Shown here: positions 9,405-11,852 of the stretch, piece after piece
How the letters are laid out: each line of letters starts with the position of its first letter
Numbering within the stretch: position 1 is the first letter of the stretch
DNA from: a virus
Lineage: Duplodnaviria; Heunggongvirae; Uroviricota; Caudoviricetes
IMG/VR virus record: IMGVR_UViG_2671180755_000014
Span: 1 to 12,149 of that record
Length of the DNA stretch: 12,149 bases
Direction: 5' to 3' (one strand)
The notes under the pieces: generated by a model
What the model saw: only the letters and a program-made list of their open reading frames with translations
What the model was told of the DNA's origin: nothing
Database searches by the model: none
Translations under genes and position numbers: made by a program

Positions 9405-9474
9405 ACCTTTCTCCTCTGAAATTCAGAGGGATGATGCTACTTAAAATAGCAAATTGCAACTACTTAAAATAGAA
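9405..9474. promoter_or_regulatory. OR-like operator/promoter region between cro and cI, with two copies of an operator-like motif
   Basis: tgctacttaaaatagca at 9435-9451 (inverted-repeat ends TGCTA/TAGCA) and ctacttaaaatag at 9460-9472, 22 bp apart. The 21-mer at 9431-9451 recurs with 19/21 identity in inverted orientation at 11832-11852. A TAAAAT -10 candidate at 9465-9470 would place the cI transcript start at or near its ATG. Confidence 0.55.
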
Positions 9475-10215
9475 ATGACTAGCGTGTGTGATGTGAGTAA
9501 TCTTCTACCTATGGTAGAAGAACAGAAGTATCCAGATTTCGCCAAGAGACTAAACGAATTGATGACAATCAAAGGAATCTCTGTCACTCAACTCAAAAGT
9601 CTTGTGGGCGTTACATATGAAATGGCTCGTCGATACACAATCGGCGCAGCGAAGCCACGTGTCTCTGTCATGAGTAAACTTGCGTTGGCTCTTGGAGTAT
9701 CAGCTTCATATCTAGAATATGGTGTTGGAGATAGAGAGGAATGTAAGGAAATGGCAAGCATCCCCAATCCAACAAAGCCCGATGTATACAGGATAGAAGT
9801 TTTGGATCTTAGCGTTAGCGCAGGACCTGGGACCTATATGCTTTCAGACTATGTTGATGTGCTCTACGCCATTGAGTTCACAACTGAACATGCCCGTTCT
9901 CTTTTCGGAAACCGTTCTCAGAATGATATAAAAGTTATGACGGTAAATGGAGATAGTATGTCCCCAACTCTTGTTTCCGGGGATCGATTGTTTGTCGACA
10001 TTTCCGTTCGCCACTTCCAGACTGATGGAGTTTACTCTTTCGTTTACGGTAAGACTTTCCATGTTAAACGTCTACAAATGCAAGGCAACAAACTAGCTGT
10101 TCTTTCGGATAACCCCGCCTATGAGAAATGGTACATTGATGAGAAGTCGCAAGATCAGCTTTATGTTATGGGTAAGGCACTGATTCATGAGTCGATTAAA
10201 TATAATCGACTTTAA
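9475..10215 (+). CDS. cI: CI-type prophage repressor (HTH_XRE plus LexA-like S24 autopeptidase)
   Basis: The N-terminal HTH is GISVTQLKSLVGVTYEMARRYTIGAAKPRVSVMSKLALALGVS; an Ala-Gly cleavage site lies in VSAGPG; the S24 catalytic Ser is in NGDSMSP and the Lys in HVKRL. The first ATG at 9475 has no Shine-Dalgarno, consistent with a leaderless pRM-like mRNA; the ORF-track start at 9454 is a TTG. Confidence 0.85.
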   Translation: MTSVCDVSNLLPMVEEQKYPDFAKRLNELMTIKGISVTQLKSLVGVTYEMARRYTIGAAKPRVSVMSKLALALGVSASYLEYGVGDREECKEMASIPNPTKPDVYRIEVLDLSVSAGPGTYMLSDYVDVLYAIEFTTEHARSLFGNRSQNDIKVMTVNGDSMSPTLVSGDRLFVDISVRHFQTDGVYSFVYGKTFHVKRLQMQGNKLAVLSDNPAYEKWYIDEKSQDQLYVMGKALIHESIKYNRL

Positions 10216-10449
10216 TTAGGCATCTAGCAATCGTTAAAGCAAACGAGCACAGATGATAAAAGATAAGGATAGAAAATCTTTATACAAATTTTATTTGGCA
10301 CATTGGTCCATAAAAATGGATTAACACTGAGCTGTTACCCTAAGTAAGAAAAGATAAAGACCATATGTTATCTTTGGGTGCGTTACTAACACAAAAAAAA
10401 CCAAAATAAAACATAAATAATAGACAATTCTATACAACAGGATACGATA

Positions 10450-11535
10450 ATGATTAATGAACGTACTGAAGCGACAGATGGGGTAGCAGATATGATTTCC
10501 ACCAATACAAAATATTTAGTATGGAACAACAAAGGTGGTGTAGGAAAAACTTTTCTTACATATAATCTTGCCGTTGAGTTTGCTATATCTCATCCGGATC
10601 AAGATGTTGTGGTTATTGACTCATGCCCTCAATCAAACGTTTCAGAAATTATTCTTGGTGGCAATGGTACCGGGGAAGAAAATCTAAATAAATTGCGAGA
10701 CAGAAATGTTACAATCGCAGGTTATATCAAGGAGCGTTTTAGCAAATCTCCTTTGTCTCGTTTAGGAAATGAATCTTCTTACTTTGTACGAGCCCATGAT
10801 GTTAATGCAAAAATGCCAGAGAACTTATATATTCTTCCTGGTGATGTCGATCTTGATATCTGTTCACGCTTAATATCTCACATTGGCTCATCCCCAGTAA
10901 AAGAAGCATGGAAGAAAAGCCGATCTTTGCTGGTAGATCTAATAGCATCTTTTGAAGCCGATAAAAACATTTCTGACAGAGCAAAAACATTTTTTATTGA
11001 TTGTAATCCAAGTTTTGCCAGCTACACAGAATTGGGAGTAGTCGCGGCAAATAGAATAATTATCCCTTGCACTGCCGATGCTGCATCAATTCGCGGAATA
11101 AAAAACCTTGTTAAACTTATTTATGGAGTGTCTATTGACAAGTCAGAACAAGATGAAATGTTCTTAGATTTCAACAAAGAAGCAAAGCAAAACCTTATCG
11201 AACTACCTGAACTACACCTTTTCGTACAAAACCGCTCAAGAACTAATGAAAGTGATGCAGCAAAAGCATTCAAATCACATGCAGAAGAGATCAAAAGAAT
11301 CACGGATGACCTGTTAAATACACATCCTCATCTGTTCACAAATGTGGCTACTTTCGAGAGAGTTCAAAATGTCAAAGATGGTAATACTCTTGCAGCAATA
11401 ATAAACCATGAGGGATGCCCTTTAAGTAGGCTGCAGCATAAGAGTTACACTATCTATGGTATGGCGACCCAAGCTAATAGAGCACAAATTGAAGCACTAG
11501 AATCTGATGTTTCAACAGTAGTCAAGTGTCTGTAA
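10450..11535 (+). CDS. ParA/MinD-like deviant Walker-A P-loop ATPase with a roughly 130-aa C-terminal extension, in the cI-downstream (rex-equivalent) moron position; function unknown
   Basis: A 361-aa ORF with ATG at 10450 preceded by AGGA. It carries the deviant Walker A VWNNKGGVGKTF, the Walker-B-like TFFIDCNPSF and the ParA-like RIIIPCTADAASIRGIKNL. GC content is visibly lower (roughly high 30s percent) than the early-gene region; it has its own AT-rich upstream region and a downstream terminator, and no parB-like partner or centromere-like repeats nearby. Confidence 0.8.
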   Translation: MINERTEATDGVADMISTNTKYLVWNNKGGVGKTFLTYNLAVEFAISHPDQDVVVIDSCPQSNVSEIILGGNGTGEENLNKLRDRNVTIAGYIKERFSKSPLSRLGNESSYFVRAHDVNAKMPENLYILPGDVDLDICSRLISHIGSSPVKEAWKKSRSLLVDLIASFEADKNISDRAKTFFIDCNPSFASYTELGVVAANRIIIPCTADAASIRGIKNLVKLIYGVSIDKSEQDEMFLDFNKEAKQNLIELPELHLFVQNRSRTNESDAAKAFKSHAEEIKRITDDLLNTHPHLFTNVATFERVQNVKDGNTLAAIINHEGCPLSRLQHKSYTIYGMATQANRAQIEALESDVSTVVKCL

Positions 11536-11569
11536 TACAATAACCATGATTTAGAACGAACATAATTCT

Positions 11570-11596
11570 CGCCCGACCAACCGGTCGGGTTTTATA
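11570..11596 (+). terminator. Rho-independent terminator after the ParA-like gene
   Basis: GCCCGACC-aacc-GGTCGGG followed by TTTTAT, about 35 nt after the stop. Confidence 0.6.
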
Positions 11597-11810
11597 CTCG
11601 TAGCCTGCTTAATAACACTGTTCCTGACCCGTTGTATCCATAGTTCCCACTATTTTCCCCCAAATTATTACTATCTAATTAACCTAATAATTAAACCAAA
11701 ACAAAAGACACTCGATATTTTCTATACGTAACTACGCCACATCACCCCATCTGTGAAAAACCTTTTAATTCATAACGTTATATAGAAAACTAAAAATTAA
11801 ATACACACTT

Positions 11811-11852
11811 CTACTTTTTGTTGTTGATTTTTGCTACTTTTAGTAGCATCAT
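11811..11852. promoter_or_regulatory. Putative OL/pL region: operator copies matching OR, in inverted orientation
   Basis: The reverse complement of 11832-11852 is atgatgctactaaaagtagca, matching atgatgctacttaaaatagca at 9431-9451 in 19 of 21 positions. A second CTACTTTTT half-site lies at 11811-11819. The position, downstream of the cI-moron-terminator block, mirrors lambda OL. Confidence 0.5.

Follow-up and report, generated by a model that had tools for sequence, protein, structure and literature searches.

The cI mRNA of phage lambda is leaderless, and the lambda repressor has three adjacent sites on each side, with OR3 located within PRM upstream of +1 and PL reading into N with nutL. 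In phage HK022, the annotated OR sites take the form TGAAC-N5-GTTCA, and OR3 (TGAACTTATGGTTCA, 487-501) is centred on the ATG of cI (494). An OL3 is described for HK022, 53 bp from OL2, and HK022 CI loops OL to OR in vivo (PMC8053113). Among the phages of the collection searched, HK639 encodes the CI closest to that described here (58% identity), and its 14-bp operators (ATAAC-N4-GTTAT) are evenly spaced and all located upstream of the cI ATG.

The window analysed here, i.e. the whole 12.1-kb stretch (12,149 nucleotides), contains a region that we consider, with a probability of roughly three in four, to be the immunity region of an HK022-like lambdoid Escherichia coli prophage, with paired CI operators and a cI gene that would be expressed as a leaderless mRNA from position 9511 (Table 1). 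The immunity type is ordinary in kind and previously uncharacterised, and in its basic design it follows the lambda/HK022 switch, which will not surprise a specialist.

Genes and paired operators of the immunity region

The divergent cro-like and cI genes are separated by a gap of 106 bp, with three 17-bp sites in the gap or at its edge, and the same operators recur in mirror orientation at the leftward early promoter. The cro-like product matches Pfam PF15943 (4.6e-11) and phrog_35 (transcriptional repressor). CI carries an N-terminal helix-turn-helix (Pfam HTH_3, 1.8e-05, above the gathering score; phrog_4, transcriptional repressor, 6e-49) and a C-terminal Peptidase_S24 domain (Pfam, 2.2e-16) that contains the expected Ala-Gly and Ser/Lys residues. 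The motifs SAGPG (A104-G105), GDSM (S149), and HVKRL (K186) are invariant in an alignment with the CI proteins of HK022 and HK639; from what is known of LexA and lambda CI, we take A104-G105 to be the cleavage site and S149/K186 to be the dyad. Among PDB sequences, phmmer found no match to CI at E <= 1e-3.

Table 1. Positions of genes, operators, and predicted regulatory elements in the window
Feature	Position	Strand	Remarks
cro-like gene	9141..9404	-	87 aa; YdaS/Cro-type HTH; first gene of the PR operon; annotated by PGAP
Predicted PR -10, CATCAT	9431..9436	-	'atgatg' flank of the 21-mer of the earlier note; 17 bp from TTGCAA
OR1	9435..9451	no strand	TGCTACTTAAAATAGCA; fills the PR spacer
Predicted PR -35, TTGCAA	9454..9459	-	TTGCAA, TTGCAT, or TTGATC in relatives
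OR2	9458..9474	no strand	AACTACTTAAAATAGAA; 23 bp from OR1
Predicted PRM -35, ATGACT	9475..9480	+	abuts OR2; includes the start ATG of the earlier note
Predicted PRM -10, TAATCT	9498..9503	+	ends 7 nt before A9511
OR3	9503..9519	no strand	TTCTACCTATGGTAGAA; perfect 7-3-7 palindrome; 45 bp from OR2
cI	9511..10215	+	234 aa; HTH_3 and Peptidase_S24 (Pfam); phrog_4, phrog_6201; PGAP start
ParA-like ATPase gene	10450..11535	+	Pfam AAA_31/CbiA; phrog_164; cargo in the variable cI-OL slot
Intrinsic-terminator-like hairpin and T run	11571..11590	+	would end the cI-ParA transcription unit
OL2	11809..11825	no strand	TTCTACTTTTTGTTGTT; one good half-site; 23 bp from OL1
Predicted PL -35, TTGATT	11824..11829	+	GTTGAT(T/A)(T/A)T in all relatives
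OL1	11832..11848	no strand	TGCTACTTTTAGTAGCA; perfect 7-3-7 palindrome; fills the PL spacer
Predicted PL -10, CATCAT	11847..11852	+	relatives fit (C/G)AnnAT
putL-like antiterminator RNA (candidate)	11898..11968	+	about 40 nt past the predicted PL start; aligned with HK022 putL and the annotated HK639 putL-like RNA

An earlier note on this DNA had drawn attention to two 21-mers in mirror orientation, atgatgctacttaaaatagca at 9431-9451 and atgatgctactaaaagtagca, the reverse complement of 11832-11852, and had interpreted them as OR and OL. The two 21-mers are indeed identical at 19 of 21 positions (differing at positions 12 and 16), and a repeat search identified the match as a 47-nt inverted repeat (9431-9477 and 11806-11852) with 79% complementarity. 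Each 47-nt arm comprises a pair of 17-bp operators, which share the core CTAC-N5-GTAG and are spaced by 23 bp, and the predicted -10 hexamer CATCAT of an outward promoter. The additional CTACTT half-sites mentioned in that note were found at 9460-9465 and 11811-11816 and belong to complete second operators, whose centres are 23 bp from those of the first. A third operator, OR3, had been overlooked; its palindromic arms reach from 9501 to 9521, and its centre is the A of the cI start codon (9511). The core with at most one mismatch is present at 9437, 9460, 9505, 11811, and 11834 and at one other place in the window.

Twenty-three distinct relatives (CI identity, 73-100%; loci of 4.5-7.7 kb) were compared. 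The five sites recur at -68 (or -67), -45, and 0 from the cI ATG and as a 23-bp pair located at +1463 to +2661, and other operator matches are nearly absent from these loci. OR1 lies at -68 (or -67) in every one of the 23 relatives and retains the CTAC/(G/A)TAG cores around a variable centre; OR2 is nearly invariant among 20 distinct rows; and the OL1/OL2 pair is kept in each of the 21 relatives whose sequence reaches that far. Different relatives carry different cargo genes in the slot from cI to OL. Citrobacter and Enterobacter relatives have the same layout with the cores TTAAC and TGAAC, and the recognition-helix region of CI changes together with the half-site, i.e. YEMxRRY with CTAC, PKAxSKW with GAAC, and QPAIQKM or TPGVWKW with TAAC; the C-terminal domain, in contrast, is conserved. 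This co-variation provides indirect support for binding of the operators by CI.

These data support the interpretation of the paired 21-mers as the probable repressor-binding sites OR and OL: cI and its cargo are flanked in mirror orientation, the predicted outward promoters are overlapped, position and core are kept in the 23 diverged relatives, and the arrangement agrees with that of the operators annotated in the homologous immunity region of HK022. The repeats might instead have arisen by chance in AT-rich DNA or be left over from a duplication, with no role in protein binding; the GC content of the region is indeed only 0.31-0.41, and the degenerate core with one mismatch is expected by chance about 2.3 times per window. 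The full 17-mer TGCTACTTTTAGTAGCA, however, is expected only 0.02 times with up to three mismatches and is found in just two places in the window, a result reached by none of 200 shuffles. Moreover, five sites are fixed in position and spacing across 23 relatives in which the flanks, operator centres, and cargo diverge, and, across the family, changes in the half-site accompany changes in the recognition helix. An origin by chance or duplication is already contradicted by these comparative data, and we regard it as extremely improbable.

If the sites are CI operators, the switch would operate as follows. CI, with its helix-turn-helix and self-cleaving S24 domain, would bind the 17-bp operators with the core CTAC-N5-GTAG as dimers. 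The '1' site of each pair would fill the spacer of the outward promoter and the '2' site would touch its -35, with PR (TTGCAA-17-CATCAT) directing transcription of cro and PL (TTGATT-17-CATCAT) that of the putL-like RNA. Cooperative CI binding, probably reinforced by an OL-OR loop of about 2.4 kb, would silence the two lytic promoters. Through OR3, which would span about -8 to +9 of the cI start, abundant CI could repress its own gene, or Cro could shut it off.

The locus resembles HK022 in several respects. The CI proteins are homologous (43% identity by tblastn and 44% in the alignment), cro and cI are divergent, the operator core is a 5-N5-5 palindrome, OR1 and OR2 are 23-24 bp apart, and the third OR operator is centred on the cI start codon in both. 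The half-site is CTAC here and GAAC in HK022, and the recognition-helix region differs accordingly. OR2 and OR3 are 45 bp apart compared with 33 bp in HK022, which would leave a -35 free next to OR2, and the ParA-like cargo brings the OL-OR distance to about 2.4 kb, compared with about 0.7 kb in HK022. HK022 is also described as having an OL3, whereas three operators, as expected of a lambdoid region, were not found on the OL side here: no conserved OL3 was detected within 250 bp of OL2, even with two mismatches, and an OL3-OR3 pairing of the lambda style therefore has no visible partner. Like lambda, the locus has mirror operator sets about 2.4 kb apart that flank cI and cargo, 17-bp operators spaced by about 23-24 bp, and a helix-turn-helix plus S24 repressor. 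Unlike lambda, the locus has only a pair of adjacent sites per side, and the third OR site is located at the predicted +1, 45 bp away; the operator sequences are unrelated to those of lambda. HK639 shares the presence of three OR palindromes upstream of cI, but none of them lies on the ATG as OR3 does here.

At the position of the predicted PR -10, relatives have CATTAT or TATTAT. A separate palindrome, CCTCTGAAATTCAGAGG, extends over the predicted PR start and is imperfect in some relatives; it could be a site for a further regulator. For the palindrome spanning 9413-9429, an interpretation as an RNA hairpin was set aside, as this palindrome contains the predicted PR start (about 9424).

The cI start codon and the maintenance promoter

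Two in-frame ATG codons, at 9475 and 9511, are candidates for the start of cI. The second is most likely the start, because the variation in 9481-9498 lacks codon periodicity (minority-allele counts by codon position, 32/28/31, compared with 76/49/166 inside cI), homologues have an MV N-terminus, with stop codons two to five codons upstream, and PGAP annotates ATG 9511. Initiation at 9511 would give MVEEQK. A start at 9475 would give MTSVCDVSNLLP, and CI could conceivably carry this 12-residue N-terminal extension.

The region preceding ATG 9511 contains no Shine-Dalgarno sequence, and a predicted -10 hexamer is placed there for a transcript starting at the A of the AUG. Among 20 distinct rows, ATGAC is invariant, the following 17-bp spacer is highly variable in sequence and constant in length, and GTAAnCTTCTACCTATG is invariant, a profile that has a promoter-like shape. 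TAAnCT is conserved, with a pyrimidine at -1, and relatives with other operator types have TATAAT, TATTAT, TAATAT, or TATAGT at the same offset; in every operator class, a -10-like hexamer ends exactly 7 nt upstream of the cI ATG. HK022 again shows the same features, i.e. an ATG followed by GT (MV N-terminus), a -10-like hexamer ending 7 nt upstream, and no Shine-Dalgarno sequence. The maintenance promoter is therefore most likely ATGACT-17-TAATCT, from which transcription starting at A9511 would yield a leaderless cI mRNA. TAATCT is a weak -10, matching the consensus at three of six positions, yet -12T, -11A, and -7T are kept. The centre of OR2 would be at -45 from A9511, 3 bp farther upstream than that of lambda OR2 at PRM, and activation by CI bound at OR2 is uncertain for this reason.

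The earlier note had assigned a leaderless cI to ATG 9475, with TAAAAT (9465-9470) as the -10 of PRM and, in the fuller form of this proposal, TTAAAA (9441-9446) as the -35. Several observations are in its favour: a consensus promoter scan, which did not list the TAATCT promoter, gave TTAAAA-18-TAAAAT (9 of 12 matches) instead; ATG 9475 is invariant and in frame with cI, and the frame after it is open in all relatives; and no Shine-Dalgarno sequence precedes it, as the note had stated. The distance from TAAAAT to this ATG, however, is 4 nt rather than about 7 nt, the A being the fifth base after the hexamer, and transcription beginning at the usual seventh or eighth base (9477-9478) would destroy the ATG 9475 codon. 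The proposed -35 coincides with the centre of OR1, which is free to vary (TTTAAG, CTAAAG, TTCTAG, or TATTGG in relatives), and the first base of TAAAAT becomes A or G in relatives. As both hexamers lie inside OR1 and OR2, CI repressing PR would also shut this promoter, and no maintenance expression would remain. In addition to the absence of a third-position excess in 9481-9498 and the MV start of homologues, no substitution was found in CTTCTACCT (9502-9510) in 20 distinct rows, which suggests constraint at the level of DNA rather than protein. We judge this proposal to be improbable as a whole: the leaderless nature of cI remains likely, but the start at 9475 and the TAAAAT hexamer, located inside OR2, are probably incorrect.

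It is also conceivable, though unlikely, that cI starts at 9511 on a leadered mRNA initiated at about 9477 or farther upstream, e.g. at an establishment promoter in the cro/cII region. A gene for a CII-like activator (8528-9112) is present, so that a long-leader establishment transcript probably exists, at least transiently, and TTAAAA-18-TAAAAT is the only promoter-like match of the scan in the intergenic region (9405-9510). Against this are the lack of a Shine-Dalgarno sequence before 9511 and the conserved -35/-10-like pair, whose spacing to A9511 suits initiation at that base. Furthermore, the palindrome with 9-bp arms around the AUG would fold in a leadered RNA (-11.6 kcal/mol; z = -5.1), and the start codon would be hidden in the fold. 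A search for lambda-type PRE sites (TTGC-N6-TTGC) gave 11 matches versus 16.9 expected, none of them on the + strand near cro/cII. Initiation at A9511 on a leaderless transcript thus remains the preferred reading. The start-codon palindrome (arms 9501-9509 and 9513-9521) might even be doubly functional, serving as a CI/Cro operator in DNA and as an AUG-burying hairpin in RNA, although we doubt this; if it were true, only the leaderless A9511 transcript would be translatable, and cI translation would be strictly set by the promoter used.

Cargo and the start of the left operon

The ParA-like gene has a GC content of 0.31-0.40, compared with about 0.43 in cI, and is replaced by other genes in relatives. 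A PADLOC analysis of its product gave no credible match to a defence system (only Drt5, E = 0.007). HK639 likewise carries cargo and a terminator between cI and PL, and a putL-like RNA after PL; HK022 also has a put-type antiterminator RNA at this place. In the alignment of the putL-like RNA, ACGGCG...CATGCGTCG...GGG...CAAT is invariant and stem I is conserved. The motif is unique in the window, and no second (putR-like) copy was found there. At the gathering threshold, Rfam models matched nothing in 9000-12149 (in the window, only AgvB and STnc100 near 1037-1311), and the putL-like assignment is for this reason derived from the alignment. The left operon thus appears to open with a putL-like RNA, not with an N gene; in lambda PL reads into N, whereas here PL would read into the put-like RNA and the window contains no N gene.

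Occurrence of the immunity type

The earlier note had suggested a comparison of the operators with the immunity groups of Stx phages, a framing that the genome of strain UTME-1 does not bear out. Positions 9000-12149 of the window are present in UTME-1 with 100% identity, and stxAB would be expected between the Q/tRNA region and the lysis genes. In the UTME-1 prophage, stx is absent from this usual place, where a tRNA-Ile/Arg/Arg cluster is followed by genes for TerB, DUF3927, and a SASA esterase and by the lysis genes.

In a megablast search of the phage collection, DNA matches were limited to the right-hand 270 bp, and no sequenced phage in this collection has such an immunity region. In a full-text literature search, the operator sequences matched nothing but a snoRNA paper of no relevance, and a paper on mEpimmI (PMC11893012) likewise had no bearing on the locus. 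An operator specificity (CTAC-N5-GTAG), a probable promoter layout, and the likely correct cI start are now defined for an immunity type that is common among E. coli prophages, which should be useful for predicting superinfection immunity groups and for annotating cI starts. The related repressors with CTAC, GAAC, and TAAC half-sites form a natural series in which the recognition helix co-varies with the operator. Among 5,426 complete genomes, 205 carry the cro-OR-cI segment over at least 80% of its length.

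Prophage setting and cargo between cI and OL

The window is part of an E. coli lambdoid prophage. Chromosomal prophages of E. coli O157:H7 strain 146N4 and of strain UTME-1 match its segment 9000-12149 with 100% identity, and ~70 complete genomes carry this segment at 99.8%. At the DNA level, none of the sequenced phages of the INPHARED collection matched 9000-11879; the nearest phage CI proteins are those of HK639 (58% identity) and HK022 (43%). The Stx-phage framing of the earlier note was not borne out, as the UTME-1 prophage (100% identical over 9000-12149) carries no stx between its tRNAs and lysis genes. 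The stretch from the tRNA-Ile/Arg/Arg cluster to the nanS-p-like esterase lacks the gene (UTME-1 prophage; loci L002 and L083), and the phage is not demonstrably of the Stx type. In the UTME-1 copy of the same prophage, IS1203 is present in a replication-initiator-like gene (locus L002, 6155-7368). AgvB (1037-1096, plus strand) and STnc100 (1098-1311, minus strand) sRNAs were detected by Rfam; both are expected in EHEC-type prophage late regions.

The slot at 10216-11800 contains variable cargo among loci. In the window and in another compared locus (L009), the cargo consists of a ParA-like ATPase gene of low GC content, which has a terminator and a promoter-like site (10421-10448) of its own; in two further loci (L007 and L008), unrelated hypothetical genes take its place. 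No credible PADLOC match was obtained for the ParA-like protein.

Features of the immunity region (promoters predicted from sequence)
Feature	Position	Strand	Remarks
CII-like gene	8528-9112	-	
cro-like HTH gene	9141-9404	-	
cro-cI gap			106 bp
Predicted PR	TTGCAA (9454-9459)-17-CATCAT (9436 to 9431)	-	
OR1	9435-9451		One half-site base different from OL1
OR2	9458-9474		
Predicted PRM	ATGACT-17-TAATCT		Hexamer ends 7 nt before A9511; pyrimidine at -1
OR3	9503-9519		TTCTACCTATGGTAGAA; perfect palindrome with the A of ATG 9511 at its centre
cI gene	from 9511	+	705-nt CDS; HTH_3 and Peptidase_S24 domains
ParA-like ATPase gene	10450-11535	+	
Terminator-like hairpin	11571-11590		
AT-rich spacer	after hairpin, before 11880		
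OL2	11809-11825		
Predicted PL	TTGATT (11824-11829)-17-CATCAT (11847-11852)		
OL1	11832-11848		TGCTACTTTTAGTAGCA; perfect 7-3-7 palindrome
Shared block	11880 onward		Common to mEp460, cdtI, and several Stx2 phages
putL-like RNA	11898-11968	+	~40 nt past PL

Operator sites and their co-variation with CI

Judged from its sequence, the immunity region is a lambda/HK022-type genetic switch, with a CI/LexA-type repressor, mirror-image OR and OL, and, as in HK022, a third operator overlying the start codon. The two 21-mers proposed earlier as OR and OL lie where they had been placed, in mirror orientation and with 19/21 identical bases, within a longer inverted repeat of 47 nt (9431-9477 versus 11806-11852, 79% complementary). 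The proposed functional operator unit is a 17-mer. With up to three mismatches, the OL1/OR1 17-mer occurs at only these two places in the window (expected number, 0.02), a count matched in 0 of 200 shuffles. The second CTACTT half-sites are also present, but are parts of complete second operators, OR2 and OL2, each centred 23 bp from its partner. A scan of the window for CTAC-N5-GTAG with up to one mismatch returned these four sites, OR3, which the earlier note had overlooked, and one unrelated match at 2789. No OL3 was found.

A weak operator-like site (GGCTACTTCAGATAAAG, 9339-9355), with two mismatches to the core, lies inside cro at a distance of 164 bp from the cI ATG. It is reminiscent of the additional operator that HK022 has ~300 bp downstream of OR. 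In the relatives with 84 and 73% CI identity, the site has one mismatch, a conservation that is inseparable from coding constraint on cro.

Three E. coli prophages that are ~93% identical over cro-OR-cI contain the identical set of five sites and no others in ~7 kb, and two of the three carry other genes between cI and OL. A scan of IMG/VR yielded 70 loci with CI 60-100% identical, and positions were compared in 23 distinct loci (CI 73-100% identical). In these, with the cI ATG as reference, the OR sites are located at -68 (or -67), -45, and 0, and a downstream 23-bp-spaced pair is located at +1463 to +2661 wherever the sequence extends that far; the CTAC/GTAG cores are constant, and the central bases and flanks are variable. 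These fixed positions and kept cores argue that the operators are under selection as sites, whatever cargo separates OR and OL. In the wider family, the half-site and the CI recognition-helix region change together and the C-terminal domain is conserved: YEMxRRY is paired with CTAC, PKAxSKW (HK022 and an Enterobacter prophage) with GAAC, and QPAIQKM (HK639) and TPGVWKW (a Citrobacter prophage) with TAAC. As evidence for CI recognition of these palindromes, this co-variation is indirect but specific; together with the mirror-image arrangement and conserved positions, it supports the OR/OL interpretation.

The third OR operator on the cI start codon is shared with HK022, whereas the half-site (CTAC versus GAAC in HK022) and the OR2-OR3 spacing (45 versus 33 bp) differ, and the cargo slot lengthens the OL-OR distance to 2.4 kb here. 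The CI protein of HK022 has been found to bring OL and OR together in a loop (PMC8053113); looping over ~2.4 kb in the present phage would be an analogy only. The operator sequences had no match in the literature searched.

Start codon and promoter of cI

The cI start had previously been taken as ATG 9475, but a start at ATG 9511 is better supported, on five grounds. In each of the four genomes inspected, the PGAP CDS is 705 nt long and begins at 9511. The HK022, Enterobacter, and Citrobacter homologues start with MV at the equivalent ATG; in-frame stops lie 2-5 codons upstream in HK022 and the Citrobacter locus, and the Enterobacter locus has no in-frame ATG upstream. Minority-allele counts by codon position in 20 distinct relatives were 32/28/31 for 9481-9498 and 76/49/166 for 9514-9600, the flat counts indicating that 9481-9498 evolves unlike coding DNA. 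The segment CTTCTACCT (9502-9510), Leu-Leu-Pro in the longer reading, has no substitutions in the same 20 relatives, which fits constraint at the DNA level, and the annotated OR3 of HK022 (TGAACTTATGGTTCA) likewise has the cI ATG at its centre. Because ATG 9475 is itself invariant and its 12 additional codons form an open frame in all relatives, a minor longer CI isoform may be produced from it.

Between OR2 and OR3, an invariant ATGAC (9475-9479) is followed by ~14 variable bases of constant length and a conserved GTAAnCT, a profile with the shape expected of a promoter, here the predicted PRM. At the same offset, loci with other operator types have TATAAT (Enterobacter prophage, L077), TATTAT (L063 group), TAATAT (L075), and TATAGT (HK022). 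This -10 geometry and the lack of a Shine-Dalgarno sequence before 9511 make a leaderless cI mRNA starting at A9511 the best-supported reading; the leaderless transcript proposed earlier is thus retained, with a promoter and start other than TAAAAT and 9475. The promoter that would include this TAAAAT, TTAAAA-18-TAAAAT, is the match reported by a consensus scan in the cro-cI intergenic region, but its -35 sits in the freely varying OR1 centre, its -10 is part of OR2 and lacks the first T in some relatives, and A9475 is just the fifth base past the hexamer. Such a promoter would also be silenced along with PR by CI on OR1 and OR2.

With a start at A9511, OR3 would extend from about -8 to +9, where it could serve as an autorepression or Cro site. 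As RNA, its palindrome with 9-bp arms (9501-9521) would have a folding energy of -11.6 kcal/mol (z = -5.1), and in any leadered transcript this hairpin would bury the cI AUG. The predicted -10 is weak. In lambda, the OR2 centre is 3 bp closer to the PRM start than the OR2 centre at -45 here, which renders activation of PRM by CI at OR2 uncertain. No lambda-type PRE site was found.

PR, PL, and the region downstream of PL

The 'atgatg' flank of the 21-mers, read on the outward strand, is CATCAT, a predicted promoter -10. In relatives, PR has TTGCAT or TTGATC with CATTAT or TATTAT, PL has GTTGAT with (C/G)AnnAT, and the most important sigma-70 -10 positions are retained in both. In this layout, the PR spacer would be occupied by OR1 and the PL spacer by OL1, with OR2 and OL2 contacting the -35 hexamers, a predicted overlap that is standard repression geometry.

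The putL-like RNA aligns with HK022 putL and the annotated HK639 putL-like RNA, with ACGGCG...CATGCGTCG...GGG...CAAT invariant and stem I conserved; the motif ACGGCG-N-CATGCGTCG occurs once in the window. Rfam contained no family matching this element, and no N gene was seen. The putL-like sequence supports the PL assignment and indicates that antitermination in this phage is probably RNA-based rather than N-based. Phages mEp460 and cdtI and Stx2a/Stx2c phages, all of which carry unrelated repressors, share the block at 11880-12087 with 96-99% identity.

Another palindrome, CCTCTGAAATTCAGAGG (9413-9429), covers both the Shine-Dalgarno sequence of cro and the predicted start of PR, 22 bp from the OR1 centre. 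It is not a CTAC-type operator; in relatives, the inverted repeat is kept with altered inner bases (CCTCTA-N5-TAGAGG), and it is broken in a few.

In the first ~120 nt past OL1, relatives with the same operators (L023-L058) have at least three different leaders immediately after the PL -10: one put-like as in the window, one with GAACAGGCAGGACGCCC... and then a boxA-like GCTCTTTAACAA, and a third with CGCTCTTTTACAA. These differing leaders point to a mosaic junction right at the promoter.
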